A DNA stretch of 64,000 nucleotides, from NCBI GenBank assembly GCA_963810935.1, contig CAWEPK010000003.1:64001-128000 (forward strand). Reading direction: 5' to 3'. The notes under the pieces are model-generated. The model worked only from the letters and a program-made list of their open reading frames with translations, searched no databases and was not told the DNA's origin. Of this stretch, positions 14,700 through 55,276 are shown in pieces. Source of the stretch: an uncultured delta proteobacterium (GTDB lineage: Bacteria; Desulfobacterota; Syntrophorhabdia; Syntrophorhabdales; WCHB1-27). Positions within the stretch are counted from its first letter, which is position 1. Each line of letters begins with the position of its first letter. The position numbers and the translations under genes are program-made.

Positions 14700-14841
14700 T
14701 ACCTCTCCGTGCAGCTTATGCACGGGCAATAATTGGGGTTAAGCACCCCCTCCACGGGCAAAGCTCGTGGAGCCTCCCTGCTCGGCGCTTCGCATACGCT
14801 CGCTCTATTCACACTACCTCTCCGTGCAGCTTATGCACGGG
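14700..14841. repeat. 27-bp direct repeat of the echE 3' end flanking an 88-bp hairpin element (family 1, copy A)
   Basis: TACCTCTCCGTGCAGCTTATGCACGGG at 14700-14726 and 14815-14841; the insert starts GCAATAATTGGGGTTAAGCACCCCCTCCACGGGCAAAGCTCGTGGAG. Confidence 0.92.
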
Positions 14842-20437: not shown

Positions 20438-20598
20438 GCAATTACTGGGGTTCAGCACCCCCTCACCGGGCAAAGCCCGGCGAATCTCCCCGCTCGTAAA
20501 AGCAAACTATCTCAGGTGGAGATGGCGGGATGCAATTACTGGGGCTCAGCGCCCCCTCCACGAGCAAAGCCCGTGGAGCCTCCCCCCTCGCAAAAGCA
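20438..20598. repeat. Two tandem family-1 hairpin elements (B 20438-20504, C 20532-20598) separated by a 17-bp copy of the tRNA 3' end
   Basis: GCAATTACTGGGG(T/C)TCAGC(A/G)CCCCCT...GCAAAGCCC...AAAAGCA twice; GGTGGAGATGGCGGGAT at 20515-20531 equals 20643-20659. Confidence 0.9.
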
Positions 20599-26326: not shown

Positions 26327-27001
26327 ATGATACCGTTGAAGGACAACGTCCCAACGCGCACATTTCCCATTATAACAATTGCCATAGTCCTTGTAAACAT
26401 CTTCATTTTCGCATGGTCCTTCACCCTTTCGCCTGACATGGAACAGGGCCTTGTACACAAGTTCGCCTTGATCCCGAATGACCTGATGATTGCCCTTTCG
26501 TCCAACATTGAACTCCTACCTTATAATGTAATGACTATATTTACCTCGATGTTTCTCCACGGCGGTTTTCTCCACATAGGCGGGAACATGCTTTATCTAT
26601 GGATATTCGGGAACAATGTGGAAGACGCAGCGGGTCATATGCGGTTCATTCTCTTTTATCTTTTGTCCGGGGTCGCCGCGGGCCTCGTGCAGTGCTCCTT
26701 CGACCCGTCCTCCCCGGTGCCGATGATCGGCGCCAGCGGGGCGGTCTCCGGCGTCCTGGGCGCCTATCTGATACTCTACCCGAGAGCCAAGGTTAAGACC
26801 CTCGTCTTTGTCTTTCTGTTCATCACTACCATAGATGTGCCGGCCATGCTGCTTCTGACGGTCTGGTTCTTTGTCCAGATTGCGTTCTCCCACGGGGCCG
26901 GGGGCGTGGCGTGGTTCGCCCATATAGGCGGTTTTATCTTCGGGATGCTCGCCATAAAGATATTCGCCAGGGGCAGGCCGAAGCCGCGCGTCGCCTGGTG
27001 A
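26327..27001 (+). CDS. Rhomboid family intramembrane serine protease
   Basis: SMFLHGGFLHIGGNM, IGASGA, AWFAHIGG. Confidence 0.94.
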   Translation: MIPLKDNVPTRTFPIITIAIVLVNIFIFAWSFTLSPDMEQGLVHKFALIPNDLMIALSSNIELLPYNVMTIFTSMFLHGGFLHIGGNMLYLWIFGNNVEDAAGHMRFILFYLLSGVAAGLVQCSFDPSSPVPMIGASGAVSGVLGAYLILYPRAKVKTLVFVFLFITTIDVPAMLLLTVWFFVQIAFSHGAGGVAWFAHIGGFIFGMLAIKIFARGRPKPRVAW

Positions 27002-27004
27002 TAA

Positions 27005-27020
27005 TGTTTCACGTGAAACA
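27005..27020. promoter_or_regulatory. parS site (ParB-binding centromere)
   Basis: Perfect TGTTTCACGTGAAACA; the palindrome extends across 27001-27024. Confidence 0.9.
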
Positions 27021-27040
27021 TTATCGCGGGTCGGAAAGAT

Positions 27041-29627: not shown

Positions 29628-29695
29628 GGCCTCCTTCCTTTCCGGGTCCGCCCGGGTTTCCCCCGGATCCCTTCCCCTAATAATGGAGGAAGGAA

Positions 29696-29711
29696 TGTTT
29701 CACGTGAAACA
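29696..29711. promoter_or_regulatory. parS site
   Basis: Perfect TGTTTCACGTGAAACA. Confidence 0.9.
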
Positions 29712-29744
29712 TTTTCGCGACCTTCGCCTTTGCTGCCGGCCGGA

Positions 29745-30444: not shown

Positions 30445-30485
30445 CGGCTGAAGCCGGTGTAGGGGGTGCTGAACCCCAATGATAA
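30445..30485 (-). repeat. Diverged family-1 hairpin element (copy D)
   Basis: Minus strand ATTGGGGTTCAGCACCCCCT followed by the hairpin CGGC-TTCA-GCCG. Confidence 0.65.
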
Positions 30486-47752: not shown

Positions 47753-48411
47753 AAGTGTCTATAGCGCCTTCCATCCTCTCGGCCGATTTTGCAAGGTTAG
47801 GAGAGGAGATCAAGGCCGTGGAGGCAGCCGGCGCGGATGTAGTGCACATCGACGTGATGGACGGCCATTTCGTGCCGAACATTACGATAGGACCGGCGGT
47901 TGTCGGGGCGGCAAGGAGAGTCACCAGGTTAGCCCTCGACGTCCACCTCATGATCGAGCACCCTGAATCGTTCGTGGACGCCTTCGCGGACGCGGGGGCC
48001 GACATCATTACGGTGCACGTCGAGACGGGTTACCACCACCAGAGGACGCTCAGCCTGATACGCTCCCTCGGCAAGAAGGCGGGCCTTGCGCTCAACCCCG
48101 GCACCCCCCTTAGCGCAGTCACGGAGCTTCTGCCCGATATCGACCTCCTGCTCGTGATGTCGGTCAATCCCGGTTTCGGCGGCCAGGCGTATATCCCGTC
48201 GTCGACGAAGAAGATAGCGGCGGCCAGGCGCATGCTCAATGCCGCGAAATCGAAAGCCGTCCTCGAGGTTGACGGCGGCATAAAGGTGGACAACGCGCAA
48301 GTAGCCGCAAAGGCGGGCGCAACCATGCTCGTCATGGGAAGCGGCCTCTTCGAGAGCAAAGACTACAAAACGAGGATGCAGGAGGTGCGCAAGGTGCTTA
48401 AATGGAAATAG
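47749..48411 (+). CDS. rpe: Ribulose-phosphate 3-epimerase
   Basis: IAPSILSADF, HIDVMDGHFVPN, MSVNPGFGGQ, EVDGG. Confidence 0.97.
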   Translation: MKVSIAPSILSADFARLGEEIKAVEAAGADVVHIDVMDGHFVPNITIGPAVVGAARRVTRLALDVHLMIEHPESFVDAFADAGADIITVHVETGYHHQRTLSLIRSLGKKAGLALNPGTPLSAVTELLPDIDLLLVMSVNPGFGGQAYIPSSTKKIAAARRMLNAAKSKAVLEVDGGIKVDNAQVAAKAGATMLVMGSGLFESKDYKTRMQEVRKVLKWK

Positions 48412-49043
48412 CGCGGCAGAAGGCGTACCGCAAGACCTTCGACCTTGCATGCGCCACCCTCGCCGGGCTGCCCGTAGAAGAGCAGACGGCGAAGGCCGGC
48501 CTTTCCCTTTCCAAACAAGGCGACGCCTATGTCATATCCGTACCCTCTTTCGACGAGACCATAGAGCTTGCAGTGCCCGGTTTCTCGTTCACAAGCACGA
48601 AGGGCTCGAACATCACCCTAACGGCGAAGATCATTATCCTGCATTACCTGATCAACGCGTCGGGCATGCCCTTAGGGGCAGGGCTCGTGCCGTATGAAGA
48701 CGTCCGCGGCTGCCGCTCCTACCTGCCCGTCTTTGAGCGCAGGGTGGTCAAGCCGCTGCTTAACGCCTTCGGCTTCGCCAGAGACGCGTTCAATGATGCG
48801 GGCAGCGCGCTAGGCGGCAAGCAGGAAGAATACGGCAACGCCTCTTTCACGCTATCAGCCTTCCCAAGGCTCCCGATCACCTTCATCCTATGGGAAGGCG
48901 ACCAGGACTTCCCACCCGCCATAAAAGTACTTTTCGACAAATCGATCGACACCTACGTGCCCCTGGAAGACATAGTAGTGGTCTCGAAAATGGCGGCGAC
49001 GAGATTGTTGAAGAGTGCGCGCAAGGTGCTTGAGGCGGAGTAA
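48402..49043 (+). CDS. DUF3786-like protein
   Basis: ILHYL, FPRLP, LWEGDQDFPP, LFD, LED pattern. Confidence 0.7.
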   Translation: MEIARQKAYRKTFDLACATLAGLPVEEQTAKAGLSLSKQGDAYVISVPSFDETIELAVPGFSFTSTKGSNITLTAKIIILHYLINASGMPLGAGLVPYEDVRGCRSYLPVFERRVVKPLLNAFGFARDAFNDAGSALGGKQEEYGNASFTLSAFPRLPITFILWEGDQDFPPAIKVLFDKSIDTYVPLEDIVVVSKMAATRLLKSARKVLEAE

Positions 49044-49063
49044 AGTGTAAAAGCGTGCGTGGT

Positions 49064-49343
49064 GGGTGGCTGGACTGGCCGCATGAAGGATACGTCCCTA
49101 TGCGGCGCCCTGCTCGCCTTGCGCCCTCTGACTTACCACCCCCATGCACCGTGGTTCCTTTCAGCACTCCGGGAACGTAGGGGCACCCGGCAAACCTACT
49201 TTTAACTGATAGGCCCGGTCAGCAAGGCTCCCATTGCATCCGCATATGAAGCATCCTCCATGCGGCTCCTCCGGCCACGGCCGCCGCAACCGAATAAAGC
49301 GCATTTATAAGGCGGCGGCAAGAGCGGGCTGTACGACATCCAT
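49064..49343 (+). repeat. Family-2 dispersed repeat, copy 1
   Basis: Core GGGCACCCGGCAAACCTACTTT (49181-49202) plus several blocks shared with the other two copies. Confidence 0.85.
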
Positions 49344-49590
49344 GTTAGATTAGGCACTGCTAACACAAGTCAATTCAATCCGCTGTCCTGAATGATAGCA
49401 GATTGCCGATCGAAACAAAGAGCCGTTTTCCGTGCTTTTTTGTTGTTATTTCTCTTTGATGGGTCTATAGTGACAAAAAGGCCTAAAACCAGTGAACAAT
49501 AAAAGAAAAAGATAAATGGGGCCCAGTGTCATCGTCGCAGTTCTTCTTGGTGGTGAAGCCTTCTCGCCATAGTCGCAAATGGAGGGAGGA

Positions 49591-50211
49591 ATGGAAAAGT
49601 TCTTACAGCAAATTCTGGGAAAGCTGCTCAGACTTGAGGACGGCGAGAAGAGAAAGAGACTTGCCGCGCTTTACGCCAATGGTAAGACGTTAGATGTTGG
49701 CATGACTCAAAGTCCGAATGAACGTTTAACGGGGGATCATGTGGTCGGTTTGGACGTGGTGGTTCCAGCGCACCTCCCCAAAAACTATTCCAGGTTCATA
49801 CAAGGGGATTGCACACACCTCAACGCGGTGCTCCAAGGCGAAACGTTTGATACAATAATAGCATTGGAAGTGATTGAACATTTGCCCGATTGGGTCGAGT
49901 TTTTTAGGCAAGCGCATGAATGTCTTAACCTAAATGGGAAATTCATCGTTTCCACTCCCAGCCCCGTCTTATGGCGAACGGTCTTGGCGAATGGCCTTTT
50001 TCCAAAAGGAATATCCTTTAGCGGAAGGGGGGTTGACGGTAAAATAGCGTGCAAACCGTGGTATGGGCACGTAATATTGCATCAACCGCGTATCTTGAAC
50101 GCCGTAGCCCAAGAACTGGGATTCAAACTTCTGGAAGTACGAAATTCCTCCGAATCCTGCTCGCTTCCGTTCCTTCAAAAGAACCTGTTGTTTGCGTACG
50201 TAAAGCATTAA
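49591..50211 (+). CDS. Class I SAM-dependent methyltransferase in AT-rich DNA
   Basis: TLDVG, VVGLD, FDTIIALEVIEHL, GKFIVSTP; ATG after GGAGG. Confidence 0.78.
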   Translation: MEKFLQQILGKLLRLEDGEKRKRLAALYANGKTLDVGMTQSPNERLTGDHVVGLDVVVPAHLPKNYSRFIQGDCTHLNAVLQGETFDTIIALEVIEHLPDWVEFFRQAHECLNLNGKFIVSTPSPVLWRTVLANGLFPKGISFSGRGVDGKIACKPWYGHVILHQPRILNAVAQELGFKLLEVRNSSESCSLPFLQKNLLFAYVKH

Positions 50212-50352
50212 CCTTTGTTCTTGTTGAATACGGCTCCAAATCTTCTAATTTTATGTGAAAGGCTATTTCATTTGTTTCAGGAAGGACTTCTTACATGACC
50301 CGACATTGTCCAATAGACTGAATATCTGCTCTTACGCTTTTAACGCATCACT

Positions 50353-50650
50353 ATGGATACGGTATCCCCTGCTCTTACCGCCGCCAAAGGGATGCGCAAC
50401 GTAGCTGCTCCGTTAGCGGCGGTCGCGGCCGGAGGAGCGCCTCAAGGGGTTGCGATATGTGGATGCCATGTGAAGTGCGTCGGCCGGAGGCATACGCATG
50501 TACGTCGTAGGGCACGCGCTGAGCAGGGCGCCGCATCCTTCATATCAGTCGAAAGTAGGTTTGCCGGGTGCCCGCACGGTCGAAAGCGTGTTGAAAAGGT
50601 ACCACCGTGCATGCGGGTGGTCCGCAGTAGGCGCGAGTCCAGCCGCCCGC
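50353..50650 (-). repeat. Family-2 dispersed repeat, inverted copy
   Basis: AAAGTAGGTTTGCCGGGTGCCC (50552-50573) is the exact reverse complement of 49181-49202; further shared blocks lie on both sides. Confidence 0.85.
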
Positions 50651-50728
50651 GTTACTCCGCAGTTGCTTTTCGCCTTTTCCGCCGTTTGTCGCTGTCCGCC
50701 GTGGGTGTCGCCTGCCCGCCCGCCCGGC

Positions 50729-51280
50729 TCAGACCGCTGTCACCTCTACCGTGCTCGCTTGCGGGCCTTTCTCCCCCTCTTCTTCTGCAAAGCGGACCTC
50801 CGAGCCTGGTTTCAGCTTTTCGAACCCGCCCCCGAGGACGCTGTTCCTGTGAAAATAGACTTCCCTGCCTTCTCTCGTTACGATGAAGCCGTAGCCCTCC
50901 CTTTGGGAGAGGGTGTTCACCACGCCGCGCTCCGGCCGCAGATCGCGCTTGACGATCCCCTGGACCTCACGCGAGTATTCGACGAGCCTCCGTTCCATGG
51001 CGTCGAAGGCGTCCTCTATAGCGGCATAGACGTCCTCATGGGCGTGGTCGAGGAGCGGGTCCCGGTTTACGACCAACTCGGCACCTGGCACCGTAATATC
51101 GACCTGTGCCTGGAATATCTTGCCCTTTCTCTGGCGGCGCTGCGGCACGTCGATCACGACGCGGCCGCCTATGATCTCCGGGTGGAGGCGGTCGAGCTTA
51201 TCTGCGCGCTCCTTGATCTTCGACTCGACTGAATCGGAATGGTCCGTGTGACGGAACGTTATCTGGAGTGGAACCTTCAT
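50729..51280 (-). CDS. HPF/RaiA ribosome-associated protein fused to a cold-shock domain
   Basis: LQITFRH, DVYAAIEDAF, GYGFI, VYFHRNS, EKGPQAS. Confidence 0.9.
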   Translation of the reverse strand: MKVPLQITFRHTDHSDSVESKIKERADKLDRLHPEIIGGRVVIDVPQRRQRKGKIFQAQVDITVPGAELVVNRDPLLDHAHEDVYAAIEDAFDAMERRLVEYSREVQGIVKRDLRPERGVVNTLSQREGYGFIVTREGREVYFHRNSVLGGGFEKLKPGSEVRFAEEEGEKGPQASTVEVTAV

Positions 51281-51421
51281 CCTTGTTTACCACCTTTAAG
51301 AGATTTTAACTTGTAAGGAATATAATTCGGGGCAGACCGGGCGTCAACGAGGACTTTCGGACGGGTGATTCTGCCGCGCTGTATCTTTAAATACTGCGCT
51401 GGAAATGTTAGGATGATGCCC

Positions 51422-53398
51422 ATGCCCTTACAACAGGAAGACGAAAGTCTGATACAGCGGGCGCGCCATGTAGTGATCGGCAAGCCCCGCGACATCAGAG
51501 ATAGCTCCCTTTTCCACAAGCTGAGCCTCATCCCGCTGCTCGCGTGGATAGGCCTAGGCGCAGACGGCCTTTCTTCATCGTCTTACGGCCCGGAAGAGGC
51601 CTTCCGCACGCTCGGGTCTCACATCTACCTCGCGGTCTTCCTGGCGCTCGCCACTGCGGTTACCGTCTTCATCATCTCATATGCCTACTCGCGCATCATA
51701 GAGCATTTCCCCCACGGCGGCGGTGGATATATAGTTGCGACCCATACGATCGGCGAGAGGGCGGGCGTCATTTCCGGCTGCGCCCTTCTGGTAGACTACA
51801 TGCTGACCATCACCGTCTCCCTCGTCTCCTGCGCGGACGCCTTTTTCAGCTTTCTCCCGATGAGCCTGCATCATTACAAGATAGGCTTCGTCATCTTTCT
51901 CATCATCCTTCTCGTCGTGCTCAACGCGAGGGGCGTCAAGGAGTCGGTCCTTTTCCTCGCCCCCATATTCATGGTTTTCGTGCTCACCCACATCGTGCTG
52001 CTCGGTTACGGTATCCTTAGTCATACGGCGGACATCAAGCCTATTATGGGAGGGATGAGGGGGAGCCTGCACCATGACCTTGGCGCTGTCGGCCTGCTCG
52101 GCATCCTCGCTATTGTTTTGAGGGCCTATTCGATGGGCGCAGGAACGTACACGGGTATCGAAGCCGTCTCGAACGGCCTGCAGATCATGCGGGAGCCCAG
52201 GGTGCACACGGGCAAGCGCACTATGGCCTACATGGCCTCATCCCTTGCTATAACGGCAGGAGGTCTCTTTGTTTGTTATCTCCTGTGGGGAGTCAAGCCG
52301 GAAGAAGGCAGGACGCTCAACGCCATCCTCGCCGGCGCCATGTTCGGCAAGTGGCCCCTCGGTAATTTCCTTGCCCTTATCACCATCCTTTCGGAAGGCG
52401 CACTGCTCCTCGTAGCAGCGCAAACGGGTTTTATAGACGGCCCGAGGGTTATGGCGAATATGGCCATCGACTCCTGGCTGCCGAGACGCTTTTCGTCGCT
52501 CTCCGAACGATTCACCATGCAAAACGGGGTCATGCTCATGGGCATAGCGGCCCTGCTTCTCCTTATTTACACGCACGGCTCCATCTCGGCTCTGGTCGTC
52601 ATGTATTCCATCAACGTGTTCCTCACATTCTCCCTCTCGGAATTCGGCATGTCCCGCTTCTTTATCCGCAACAGGCGGAGGGAGAAAAAGTGGAAGCAGC
52701 ACCTTCCCGTCCATATGACGGGCTTCACGCTCTGCGTTACCATTCTCGGCGTCACCGTTTATGAGAAGTTCAGTGAGGGCGGCTGGGTGACGCTGCTTAT
52801 CACGACCGCAGTCATCGGGGTGTGCTACCTGGTCCGCTACCATTACACGAAGGTGCGAAAGAGCATCAGGCAGCTCGACGAGATACTCATGGGGATACCG
52901 GCCAACGAGGAGCCGAACATGGCGCCCCTCGACCCCGGTGCGCCGACGGCCGTCCTGCTCGCCCCTTCCTTCAACAGCTTCGGCCTCCATACCCTGCTGT
53001 CGGTAGTCCGCTGCTTCCCGCACCTCTACAAGAACTTCATTTTCGTGGGGGTTGCCGAAATCGATTCCGGCTCCTTCAAGGGAGCGGCCGAAGTGGAGGC
53101 CCTGAACGAAGCGACGAAGGAGTCCCTTGAGAAATACGTGAAGGTAACGCGGCGGCACGGCTTCCCGGCGGATTACAGGACGGAGACCTCGACGGACGTT
53201 CCGGGGACCGTCGTGGAGCTGTGCAGGTCAATTGTGCAGGATTATCCCCGTTCCACTGTTTTCACGGGCCAGCTCATGTTCCACAAAGAGACCTGGATCG
53301 ACAAGGTGCTCCACAACCAGACAGCGTTTGCGATCCAGCGGCGCCTTCAGTGGGAAGGCATACCAACGGTGATTATGCCGATCAAGGTTAAGATTTAG
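51422..53398 (+). CDS. APC family permease (YdaO/KimA-like)
   Basis: ADGLSSSSYGPEE, GGGGY, TGIEAVSNG; many TM segments and a soluble C-terminal domain. Confidence 0.85.
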   Translation: MPLQQEDESLIQRARHVVIGKPRDIRDSSLFHKLSLIPLLAWIGLGADGLSSSSYGPEEAFRTLGSHIYLAVFLALATAVTVFIISYAYSRIIEHFPHGGGGYIVATHTIGERAGVISGCALLVDYMLTITVSLVSCADAFFSFLPMSLHHYKIGFVIFLIILLVVLNARGVKESVLFLAPIFMVFVLTHIVLLGYGILSHTADIKPIMGGMRGSLHHDLGAVGLLGILAIVLRAYSMGAGTYTGIEAVSNGLQIMREPRVHTGKRTMAYMASSLAITAGGLFVCYLLWGVKPEEGRTLNAILAGAMFGKWPLGNFLALITILSEGALLLVAAQTGFIDGPRVMANMAIDSWLPRRFSSLSERFTMQNGVMLMGIAALLLLIYTHGSISALVVMYSINVFLTFSLSEFGMSRFFIRNRRREKKWKQHLPVHMTGFTLCVTILGVTVYEKFSEGGWVTLLITTAVIGVCYLVRYHYTKVRKSIRQLDEILMGIPANEEPNMAPLDPGAPTAVLLAPSFNSFGLHTLLSVVRCFPHLYKNFIFVGVAEIDSGSFKGAAEVEALNEATKESLEKYVKVTRRHGFPADYRTETSTDVPGTVVELCRSIVQDYPRSTVFTGQLMFHKETWIDKVLHNQTAFAIQRRLQWEGIPTVIMPIKVKI

Positions 53399-53457
53399 CG
53401 CGCTGCGCTCAAGTCTTGCGGTCCTCGCGATAATAAAGGCAAAGCGCATGTGTTGTA

Positions 53458-53599
53458 CGGCCGGACTCGCGCCTGTGCTTCAGGACTTTTGTACCGTGGG
53501 GCATCCTGCAAACCTACTTTCAACTGACAAGCACGGTCAGCAAGGTTCCCGTTTCATCGATAATAGCGGGACACCTGCGGCAAGAACGGGCGGTACGTC
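53458..53599 (+). repeat. Family-2 dispersed repeat, short copy
   Basis: GGACTCGCGCCT, GGGCATCCTGCAAACCTACTTTCAACTGA, GGTCAGCAAGG, GCGGCAAGAACGGGC match the other copies. Confidence 0.82.
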
Positions 53600-53605
53600 T
53601 ACAGT

Positions 53606-53649
53606 TTGACTGTTGCGACAATTGGCGCTATAATATAGTCAAATGTCGC
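53606..53649 (+). promoter_or_regulatory. Sigma70 promoter of the TA operon with an inverted-repeat operator candidate
   Basis: TTGACT-N17-TATAAT (53606-53634); GCGACAATTG and CAAATGTCGC straddle the -10. Confidence 0.7.
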
Positions 53650-53680
53650 CCACACCTTCAAGGAGACCATTATAGCCCAG

Positions 53681-54091
53681 ATGAATGTCGAAAACATTCT
53701 CGGTCTGAAAGTCAAGATCGAGAACCCTCTCGATTTAATCCACCTCGGGGCCAGGGGAGTATCAAAAAAACAGATCGGCAGGCTCTCCGAGGCGATGTGC
53801 CTGTCCATGGCAACCATCGCGAATTTGCTGGTAGTAAGCCTCAGAACGATACAACGGCAACCCAAAGGGAAAGTTTTCGATAAGAATGTGTCCGAACGCG
53901 CTATTAAGCTGGCTCAGCTTACGGCCCACGGCGTCAGCGTTTTTGGAGCCAGGGAAGAATTCTGCGTCTGGCTTCAGACGCCGGTCGTTGCCCTCGGAAA
54001 CAAAACTCCCATGAGCATACTCGACTCCACAATGGGCGTCGAGCTCGTCGACGATATCATCGGCAGGATAGAACACGGCGTCTTCTCGTGA
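53681..54091 (+). CDS. Antitoxin, Xre/MbcA/ParS family
   Basis: HTH (VSLRTIQR), WLQTPVVALGNKTP, RIEHGVFS. Confidence 0.88.
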   Translation: MNVENILGLKVKIENPLDLIHLGARGVSKKQIGRLSEAMCLSMATIANLLVVSLRTIQRQPKGKVFDKNVSERAIKLAQLTAHGVSVFGAREEFCVWLQTPVVALGNKTPMSILDSTMGVELVDDIIGRIEHGVFS

Positions 54092-54546
54092 TCGTCTATC
54101 GAATCAGCTCACGCTTACACGCTCGAGACCTCTCCGGGGCGGGCGCCGGGCTTCACGGCGGCCGATGGAACCCTAAAGGGGTCAATGTAATATACGCGGC
54201 AGAGAGCAGGGCCCTCGCCGCCCTTGAGCTATATGCAAACCGTGCAAGGGCGACGGCGCTCTCAAACCTCAACCTTGTGTCTCGCGTTGTCCCCGATGGC
54301 GTCCCCGTAAAGAAGCTTCTCCCTGCCGACCTTCCTGCGGGGTGGAATGTCTATCCAGCGCCCGATGTCCTTGCCGACATAGGCGGGAGGTGGGCGATGT
54401 CGATGGAGACGCTCCTGTTGTGTGTTCCGTCAGCGCTCATGGAAAAAGAGTTCAACTACATCATCAACCCCGCCCATGCCGACATGACGAAGTTAACGAT
54501 TGGAGACATCGAAGAGTACAGCTTCGACCAACGGCTCCTCGAATAG
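54088..54546 (+). CDS. RES domain toxin (NAD+ phosphorylase family)
   Basis: VYRI, GGRWN, YAAESRALAALE, VPSA, NYIINPAH; overlaps the antitoxin stop. Confidence 0.9.
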   Translation: MIVYRISSRLHARDLSGAGAGLHGGRWNPKGVNVIYAAESRALAALELYANRARATALSNLNLVSRVVPDGVPVKKLLPADLPAGWNVYPAPDVLADIGGRWAMSMETLLLCVPSALMEKEFNYIINPAHADMTKLTIGDIEEYSFDQRLLE

Positions 54547-54595
54547 GGCACGTGGCTGACTAACCTCTCCTGTGACAACAGGCCGCGATACGAGG

Positions 54596-55276
54596 TTAGT
54601 CCAGCCTGAACAGCTCGCCGTCTACCATGTTTAACCGCCGGTCGCCTGCTGCGCCTATCTCCGGGTCGTGGGTGACGAGGACTAGCGCCGAGCCGAGCTT
54701 CTTCCTTATTTCAAGGATATAACCCAGCACCTCTCTCCCCGTCTTCCTGTCGAGGTTGCCTGTCGGCTCGTCTGCAAGTATCAGCTCCGGCCGGTTGATG
54801 AGGGCCCTGGCGATTGCCACCCTCTGCTGCTCGCCGCCCGAGAGCTCGCCGGGCTTGTGGCCCCTGCGATGGGAAAGCCCCATTATCTCCAAGAATTCCT
54901 CTGCGGCAGCCTGGGCGTCGGCGGGCTTGGTGCGCTTTATCCACAAGGGAACCATGATGTTCTCGATGACGGAGAAGTCCTGCAAAAGGTGGTAGAACTG
55001 GAAGACGAAGCCGACCTTTTCGTTCCTGAAGCGGCATTGCTCGTCGCCGGTGAACAGGCCGATGTCCTTTCCCCTGTAAGCGATCTCGCCTCCCGTCGGA
55101 TGGTCGAGGGAGCCGACGAGGTGGAGGAAGGTGCTTTTCCCCGCGCCTGACGGACCCATGATCGTCACGAACTCGCCCTCCGCAACGTCGAAATCTATGC
55201 TGCGCAGTACGGTGACCTCGGCGCCGTCCTTATGGTAGCTCTTCTTCAGTCCCCTGGTCGCCAGCAGGCTACTCAT
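54596..55276 (-). CDS. lolD: Lipoprotein-releasing ABC transporter ATPase
   Basis: [36 protein letters not shown]. Confidence 0.88.

Follow-up and report, generated by a model that had tools for sequence, protein, structure and literature searches.

A dispersed mosaic hairpin element at core-gene ends, and the accessory genes beside it, in an uncultured Syntrophorhabdales bacterium

Three long repeats in alternating orientation lie among host and accessory genes in a 64,000-nt stretch of contig CAWEPK010000003.1 (hereafter the window), and they raise the question whether such repeats form a recombination system that captures or inverts genes. An initial annotation had taken them for the borders of cassette-like modules. 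Sequence comparison assigns all three repeats to a dispersed mosaic hairpin element, and they do not form a three-site switch.

Repeat copies, host genes and cargo at the locus

The features of the locus are collected in Table 1, and the gene labels of the initial annotation were all confirmed by Pfam. The exact 22-mer that had been proposed as the repeat core was present at 49181 (+) and 50573 (-), and the three named blocks were found at 49135/50621, 49265/50438 and 49311/50385 in copies A and B, respectively. BLASTN gave E-values of 1e-12 for A/B and 3e-13 for A/C, the latter two having 61 nt in common at 85% identity, and covariance model R1 gave no match on copy C. The 22-mer occurs six times in the genome and sits within the nested module of all three copies, outside the conserved hairpin core. 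This module, defined by alignment of 20 distinct copies from three genomes, substitutes for the GTAC apex in copy A and lies in the left arm of the hairpin core in copy B (50540-50621); it has a weak consensus fold only (about -11 kcal/mol), and on the top strand the folds of whole copies A and B were no stronger than those of shuffled sequences (z about -1).

Table 1. Features of the repeat locus in the window
Feature	Position	Strand	GC	Remarks
DUF3786 host gene	48402..49043	+		Pfam; syntenic in 10/10 relatives' loci
Copy A	49062..49380	+	0.61	Right end approximate; model R1 E 6.5e-28; hairpin core 49062-49283 (nested module in apex), second hairpin terminating in GGCGGCGGCAAGAGC (49311-49325), AT-rich tail
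Nested ~85-nt module	49135..49214	+		Ends approximate; contains the 22-bp core
Class I SAM methyltransferase	49579..50211	+	0.48	Pfam; cargo between inward-facing A and B
Copy B	50274..50680	-	0.63	Ends approximate; model R1 E 3e-27 at 50420-50568; purine-rich left flank, hairpin core, second hairpin, shared ~87-nt tail
raiA-CSD host gene	50729..51280	-	0.60	Pfam; stop abuts left end of B; not cargo
APC permease	51413..53398	+	0.58	Pfam; stop adjoins left end of C; an older occupant of this locus
Copy C	53456..53600	+	0.57	Remnant with deletions: left motif, nested module, part of right arm
Xre-RES toxin-antitoxin pair	53681..54546	+	Xre 0.53, RES 0.58	Pfam; cargo right of C
lolD-like ABC ATPase	54596..55276	-		Pfam; far host boundary

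The turn to AT-rich DNA noted inside the repeats was strong inside A and B, where the gaps on the left and right of the methyltransferase gene had GC contents of 0.43 and 0.38, and only mild past C. The shared repeat tail, of which 87 nt are common to another locus, accounts for some of the AT-rich DNA inside B.

Comparison with ten loci of relatives, nine of them lacking the element, separated host genes from cargo. Since raiA follows the DUF3786 gene in 8/10 of these loci, and the APC gene adjoins raiA in two (G012 and G019, both without element), the raiA-APC block is host DNA, with raiA ancestral there, and not an accessory module. The Xre-RES pair was missing at the orthologous site in all ten loci, and its nearest homologues are at other sites, where the element is absent. 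In the order, 2/61 genomes have methyltransferase homologues, among them a resident paralogue with 70% identity and a GC content of 0.60, and a metagenome scan did not find a relative. At the orthologous locus, G001 carries a full element behind the stop of the lolD-like ABC ATPase gene, and G012 and G014 carry cargo without the element. A single travelling unit of element plus cargo was considered and rejected, the methyltransferase and RES homologues having no element nearby (0 in 10 loci). Coverage of the methyltransferase gene was nil in run X4 and low in X2, with covered flanks; because no contig joins across the gap, it was not counted as evidence.

The element family and the search for a mobilizer

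The source genome (G000) holds 38 loci of the element family, whose conserved unit is a hairpin core of about 140 nt. Compensatory changes were found in 26 of its 37 pairs, a number reached in none of 500 shuffles, an invariant G.T pair is carried in the core, and the outer stems differ in sequence yet remain paired. Of the two strands, the one antisense to the upstream gene gave the more stable consensus fold (-43.1 versus -31.1 kcal/mol). With model R1, the element was detected in 29/61 genomes of the order, at copy numbers from 0 to at least 49. An early reading of the family as genus-specific held only for the right-end motif (39 of 49 matching stretches came from two congeners, the other 10 lacking an upstream hairpin), the core being more widespread. 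Modules are shuffled among copies, and 48 of 75 right ends have tails of 25-297 nt common to other loci, a few of these pairs being orthologous. Distant relatives of the element retain terminal inverted repeats with TAG/CTAG flanks.

No Rfam family matched the repeats at the gathering score, the two chance-level matches both lying outside them; they resemble neither dif nor attC, and no recombinase gene lies beside them, as the initial annotation had stated. Literature searches turned up neither the hairpin family nor the G skew described below. Four element motifs were not found in supplements 1-12 of PMC2700814, where alignments may be pictures, so that PMC2700814 or the G. bemidjiensis supplements may already list the distant form.

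Several classes of enzyme were searched for. Integron integrase scored above the cut-off in 0/4 genomes of the genus and in 5/21 genomes searched (66-93% complete); the eight tyrosine recombinases matched in G000 were none of them beside the 38 loci, and no recurrent recombinase appeared among 112 neighbouring or nearby proteins. DUF772 transposases were not found in the high-copy genomes G002, G011, G024 and G030 and present in many zero-copy genomes, and thus do not track copy number. For IS91/ISCR one-ended capture, which uses a Y2 transposase and has one precise end, PF04986 (Y2 transposase) gave no match, as did its control; Y1 matches in G000 were IS200-like and beside a different repeat. 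Neither element junction is precise, and visual inspection of 22 filled/empty pairs, from a species pair that is too diverged, showed no target-site duplication. IS110 (2/4 copies) and IS1182 (3/4 copies) occupy fixed positions within the element, and these, ISAs1, a RAYT-like gene and other palindromes accumulate in its copies; the RAYT-like gene of G001 lies within a tail, and another was found close to a copy in G004. ComEC is encoded in the source genome; a link between ComEC and the repeat vanished on wider sampling, and because 37/41 relatives encode it, ComEC is not discriminating.

Polarity, cargo turnover and the left-hand gene

In many related soil bacteria the element is placed directly behind the stop codon of a core gene, with accessory DNA on the far side. 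In the congener G001 (43 copies), a neighbour without a G000 homologue stood on the right of 26 copies and on the left of 11 (background 23/93), and discordant copies had the non-conserved gene on the right in 17 cases and on the left in 2 (p = 7e-4). Among 31 copies from seven genomes of three other genera, the left gene was conserved in 26 and the right gene in 6 (discordant 20 versus 0), and GC was 0.59 for left and 0.54 for right genes. In G000, the right gene had GC ≤ 0.535 in 13/29 copies against a background of 235/1359 (p = 6e-4). These neighbour counts bear out the expectation that copies mark variable-gene boundaries and are not placed at random. Polarity was not seen in G002 (9 copies; 6 versus 5), many copies in G024 face in reverse, and conserved genes flank about 40% of the G001 copies on both sides.

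The orientation of a copy matched that of its upstream gene in 27/38 cases in G000, 28/43 in G001 and 24/35 elsewhere. As a copy follows a gene at its stop, convergent genes yield inward pairs and divergent genes outward pairs, and the alternation in the window arises because DUF3786 and raiA converge and raiA and APC diverge. Alternating orientation as a trait of a recombination system is thus not supported here. No inversion joint was present in the contigs of four runs, although contigs cannot show absence.

Module content varied, with the same sites holding different cargo in different genomes. Cargo differed among G000, G001 and G002 at the radA-nspC site, and different cargo occupied the orthologous position at two further G000/G002 sites and, in G001, at the present locus. 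Alignments of G000 with G002 end within the repeat or at its right end, and 22 of the 26 G001 sites scored are empty in G000. The proposal of a platform for gene capture or inversion thus keeps its variable-gene boundaries and its cargo differing between genomes, and loses alternation as a feature of the system.

Over roughly the final 60-80 codons, host genes at the left end of the element had an excess of G over C; this skew was confined to the left, absent from empty orthologues and replicated in four genera. In the window's own three genes the skew was weak (0.14, 0.11 and -0.12), the G001 mean over 60 codons was 0.02, and the APC end in G012 appears G-rich though it lacks the element. Strand-biased heteroduplex formation or repair is our guess at the source of the skew. 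Fourfold-site divergence was raised in the last 30 codons (22/77 versus 95/560, p = 0.018, six genes). Polymorphism among conspecific strains was dense at the same ends: the last 200 bp of the DUF3786 gene held 15 of the 20 SNP positions listed, an X4 contig matched the window over 48300-48908 and then differed at 13 positions in 209 nt, extending into copy A, and one strain contig over the APC end had 24 differences in 964 nt, compared with 1-3 in its neighbours. A single study supplied all of these strain data, and SNPs inside a tract are not independent.

Candidate roles and related systems

We favour, with a confidence evenly poised between acceptance and doubt, a role of the element as a portable homology anchor resembling the NIMEs, where host homologous recombination would swap accessory genes. 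PMC1797815 describes NIME arrays as mosaic intergenic repeats that collect IS, differ between syntenic sites and lie beside diverged genes; they were seen only in Neisseria and proposed as anchors for exchange with incoming DNA. NIME/dRS3 and minimal mobile elements share with the present family mosaic modules, dynamic syntenic sites and a diverged flanking gene, whereas the present element is a 140-nt strand-asymmetric hairpin, polar to the stop codon and flanked on one side by whole accessory genes. The 20-bp dRS3 inverted repeat, as given in that text, was not seen by eye in the element alignments. Because distant relatives retain terminal inverted repeats and TAG/CTAG flanks, the element probably spread as a non-autonomous MITE-like unit. 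Incoming DNA, probably entering by transformation, would pair through about 200 bp of host gene end plus repeat, and we propose the last ~200 bp of the DUF3786 gene as the left arm of copy A; the far junction would be made in a second repeat or by microhomology, and successive rounds would lengthen shared tails and turn over cargo. Horizontal transfer hotspots without mobile elements have, in the available part of PMC5635113, cargo turnover between core genes and raised recombination and diversity in flanking genes; here, in contrast, a dispersed repeat marks one edge and the left gene has a local G skew, neither of which that part names. Lambdoid boundary sequences, short conserved sequences at module joints with a suggested role in guiding homologous exchange (PMC3029335), differ in that the present element is chromosomal, dispersed and itself mobile. 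Against the anchor, recombination was nowhere observed directly, cargo arrives without the element in G012 and G014, a conserved strand-specific fold is unnecessary for plain homologous recombination, and G002, G024 and the weak skew in the window depart from its pattern.

The main rival, which we hold to be unlikely though it deserves attention, is a passive selfish hairpin of MITE or REP type that inserts at stop codons, persists where downstream DNA is neutral and does not itself cause cargo to turn over; such neutral sites are also where accessory genes and IS elements gather. Bacterial MITEs, IMU and Geobacter multicopy sequences are likewise non-coding, structured and variable in copy number; IMU pairs flank cargo (PMC3184786) and multicopy palindromes of unknown function are catalogued in Geobacter (PMC2700814, PMC2996986). 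Like MITEs, the present element is present or absent at orthologous sites, and like REP/REPIN it serves as an IS target; its distant relatives are MITE-like, insertions pile into its copies, and both the cargo at this locus in relatives and the cargo homologues elsewhere occur without it. Terminal inverted repeats are kept in the distant families, whereas here the outer stem is variable, with vestiges at some left ends, and, unlike for MITEs and IMU, neither a target duplication nor, in a survey of the DUF772 family among DDE transposases, a cognate transposase was found, and movement of cargo with a pair is not shown. A passive element also leaves unexplained the breakpoints inside copies, the strain tracts extending into copy A, the left-only skew missing from empty orthologues, and outer stems variable in sequence but paired.

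Integron attC sites are imperfect hairpins with covarying stems, of which one strand folds better. The present element likewise is an imperfect hairpin after a gene with these properties, but it comes without integrase in the genus and mostly as single copies behind core genes, and the AAC/GTT boxes at the stem base of attC had no counterpart among the invariant columns of 39 element sequences. That the hairpin is a single-strand recombination site (attC bottom strand or REPIN-like), at which an enzyme in trans joins foreign DNA on the right to form a distributed gene-capture platform, agrees with the better antisense fold, the invariant G.T pair, the compensatory changes, the strict polarity and one tandem array in G001 (element-TA-element-gene-element); we judge it improbable, as neither an integrase, a recurrent neighbouring recombinase nor a precise junction was found, DUF772 does not track copy number, and the fold may serve the element's own mobility only. 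A distributed, integron-like platform, in which dozens of polar single-strand hairpins behind core-gene stops are read by an enzyme or a host repair pathway, loading accessory genes (toxin-antitoxin, restriction, orphan) on one side with G-biased rewriting of the host gene's final 200-250 bp on the other, is put forward only tentatively, as a rather unlikely reading. A pdif/Xer site has 28 bp, with XerC and XerD arms around a 6-bp spacer, whereas the conserved unit here is a 140-nt hairpin (compared by eye with the dif consensus). Inward pairs are enriched in G001 (5/7 pairs within 5 kb among 37 copies, p = 2e-4 versus random placement), as alternately oriented sites of a pdif-like cassette or inversion system, the model of the initial annotation, would have it; with orientation tracking the upstream gene, raiA-APC being host DNA rather than an accessory module and many cargo blocks having a copy on one side only, we find it scarcely credible. 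Retention as a regulatory RNA or terminator shielding core genes from accessory-DNA transcription fits the strong covariation and a better-folding strand that would be RNA transcribed towards the host gene, starting on the cargo side; it is very unlikely given no Rfam match at gathering level, site gain and loss between congeners, and many copies, including C, that are broken or have apex insertions.

Even if the passive hairpin is the right model, the family is a structured type of MITE that apparently has not been described before and that IS110 and IS1182 target. Many bacterial gene-transfer hotspots have no recognisable mobile element, according to PMC5635113, and this hairpin family tags such hotspots by sequence: a genome has 20 to 50 or more sites, their polarity is fixed, and the adjoining core gene carries a footprint that can be measured. 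The idea put forward for NIMEs, in which repeats act as anchors for gene exchange, thereby becomes testable outside Neisseria, and the one-sided G skew may report the strand used in recombination.

The repeat family and its hairpin

The three repeats, their shared blocks and the gene labels that the initial annotation had assigned to 49064..54546 of the window were all confirmed, and the AT-rich turn it described was strong inside copies A and B and only mild beyond copy C. BLASTN with the three copies found 38 loci in the host genome (G000; 93% complete, 7% contamination, at least one locus duplicated between contigs) in the first round; later rounds reached 173 loci by chaining through nested modules, and these were mostly other palindrome families. 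The copies have in common a purine-rich left flank, the motif TGGACTCGC, an imperfect long hairpin whose apex is GTAC-N4/5-GTAC, another hairpin that comes in two kinds, and a tail. A module of ~85 nt, which contains the 22-bp core noted initially, sits inside the apex of A and inside the left arm of B, and forms most of the remaining sequence of C. R1, a covariance model of the hairpin core, matched A and B and gave no match to C.

Positions of the repeats and associated features
Feature	Genome	Position	Strand
Copy A	G000, window	49062..49380 (right end approximate)	+
Copy B	G000, window	50274..50680 (ends approximate)	-
Copy C	G000, window	53456..53600	+
~80-nt palindromic repeats	G000, window	14726-14792, 20438-20598, 30461-30483	
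TGTTTCACGTGAAACA palindromes	G000, window	27000-27022, 29694-29716	
Inverted repeat flanking Xre-RES	G000, window	53610-53620, 54570-54582	
IS110-family element	G000, C17 (also C5, C7)	L026:1680-3190	
IS1182-family element	G001	L044:2150-3800, L035, L042	
Tyrosine-recombinase clusters	G004; G007	L150:2429-5500; L253	
Element-cargo-element	G002	L048:2100-4300	
ORF at the corresponding place	G000	C7:114170-115950	
Methyltransferase paralogue	G000	L270 (C12:295118-295750)	
G-rich gene end and spacer	G012	L016:4440-4660	

The structure was aligned from 39 uninterrupted cores of 11 genomes, picked from 53 forward full-length matches. With RNA parameters the consensus fold reached -43.1 kcal/mol on the strand antisense to the upstream gene versus -31.1 on the sense strand, and DNA parameters gave the same preference in four of four single copies folded. 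Changes on both sides were found in 26 of 37 pairs, and 95% of the alignment cells pair; slid partners pair in 22-53%, and none of 500 shuffles reached this covariation, a value to be read as support rather than as a probability because the structure was derived from the same sequences and shuffling ignores relatedness.

Across the order, R1 has matches in 29 of the 61 genomes, and copy numbers run from 0 to at least 49 (49 candidates scored per genome); across the phylum it has matches in 9 of 151. Most of the distant matches carry terminal inverted repeats starting AGGCTG, often flanked by TAG or CTAG, and they usually lie behind a stop codon; these features point to a MITE, from which the element would be derived.

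A second palindromic family, of ~80 nt and with many genome copies, is also nested within the main element and adjoins IS200-like Y1 genes. The TGTTTCACGTGAAACA palindromes, which we take to match the parS consensus, suggest an origin region nearby. The imperfect 11-13-bp inverted repeat around the Xre-RES pair resembles IS1182-type ends.

Orientation, polarity and turnover of cargo

A co-oriented gene precedes the left end in 27 of the 38 G000 loci (the counted intergenic classes would give ~42%), in 28/43 in the congener G001 and in 24/35 in other genera. The alternating orientation first read as a feature of the system is thus explained by the upstream gene, since A follows DUF3786, B raiA and C the APC permease. 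Of the ten loci compared in relatives, eight have raiA and two have APC adjoining it; the element occurs in G001 alone, where it stands behind lolD, and that locus also has a remnant behind DUF3786 and carries 7 kb of different cargo. Therefore, the locus holds two cargo slots rather than the three modules proposed.

The suggestion that copies mark variable-gene boundaries was borne out on the right side. In G001, with IS genes skipped, the right neighbour lacked a G000 homologue in 26 of 43 copies and the left neighbour in 11 of 43 (discordant 17 versus 2). From other genera, 40 loci were taken from the best R1 matches and 31 scored, leaving out five without a neighbour and four from G014, whose subtype looked symmetric (one of the four was discordant the same way and none the other way); the left neighbour was conserved in 26 and the right in 6 (discordant 20 versus 0). 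The right gene was AT-rich in 13/29 G000 copies against a background of 235/1359. The nine copies of the congener G002 showed no left/right difference, and in G024 the element is often reversed. The observations of the initial annotation stood, and its interpretation was supported in part: for the variable boundaries, not for the alternation or the module count.

The cargo includes toxin-antitoxin pairs, a restriction endonuclease and an N6 methyltransferase, and many of its proteins match no Pfam family. It differs among three species at the radA-nspC site, G000/G002 alignments break inside copies or at their right end, and at one site in G001 three copies stand in tandem with cargo in the intervals. 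At the window locus of G012 and G014 cargo is present and the element absent, and cargo homologues at other places have no element, which counts against a causal role of the element.

In G002, element-cargo-element stands in place of a G000 ORF, presumably a DEAD-box helicase, with microhomology at one junction. The cargo methyltransferase has a resident paralogue, 70% identical, conserved in G002 and with a GC of 0.60 versus 0.48 in the cargo gene.

Base skew and variation at host gene ends

In 25 G000 genes abutting the left end, G and C made up 0.55 and 0.22 of the fourfold sites within the final 20 codons, compared with 0.35/0.35 in 723 control genes (p = 1.7e-7), and the skew fades by ~80-100 codons from the gene end. 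No mean skew was found in genes facing the right end (n = 12) or in genes before AT-rich DNA without the element (n = 86). The skew recurs in other genera (22 versus 55 genes, p = 2e-4) and is weak across G001 overall and in the window's three host genes. At 22 G001 sites, G in the last 20 codons was 0.50 with the element and 0.37 in the empty G000 orthologue, indicating that the skew is not simply target preference. A G-rich gene end and spacer also precede toxin-antitoxin cargo in G012, where no hairpin was detected; the skew may outlast the element or not require it.

In contigs from four soil runs, all belonging to one study, 15 of the 20 DUF3786 variant positions listed fall within the final 200 bp of the 642-bp gene; one contig shows no difference over 600 bp, and the next has 13 differences over a 209-nt stretch that runs into A. 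The APC gene end shows the same pattern. The pattern is consistent with short recombination tracts that end in the element, and also with linkage to a variable site.

Mobilisation and a possible homology anchor

Searches for tyrosine recombinases, Y1, integron integrase and DUF772 transposases identified no mobilising enzyme. Four near-identical copies of an IS110-family element all lie in one short target motif, two of them in the hairpin apex, and the right non-coding end holds both halves of the motif, making these segments a candidate bridge-RNA guide. Three of four IS1182-family copies in G001 occupy one hairpin position, in both orientations. Such targeting accounts for insertions into copies, not for cargo. 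Tyrosine-recombinase gene clusters, which we take to be RIT-like, lie 200-350 bp right of a hairpin copy in G004 and G007.

On their defining features, pdif, attC and NIME each differ from the element. Neither the family nor its polarity or skew turned up in the literature, with Geobacter-paper supplements partly covered, and the distant form may sit in those supplements. NIME arrays were proposed to work as a homology anchor would, with repeats that anchor exchange with incoming DNA (PMC1797815); recombination reported in hotspot-flanking genes agrees with an anchor (PMC5635113). ComEC is present and near-universal in the order.

Dispersal, polarity, turnover, structure and skew are demonstrated. 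The most economical account, in our view, is a MITE-derived homology anchor for cargo replacement, in which we infer the MITE origin, transformation and causal anchoring. The hairpin would dock behind a stop codon and offer homology common to the whole genome and family; incoming DNA would pair with it along both the gene end and the repeat, and then replace the downstream DNA.
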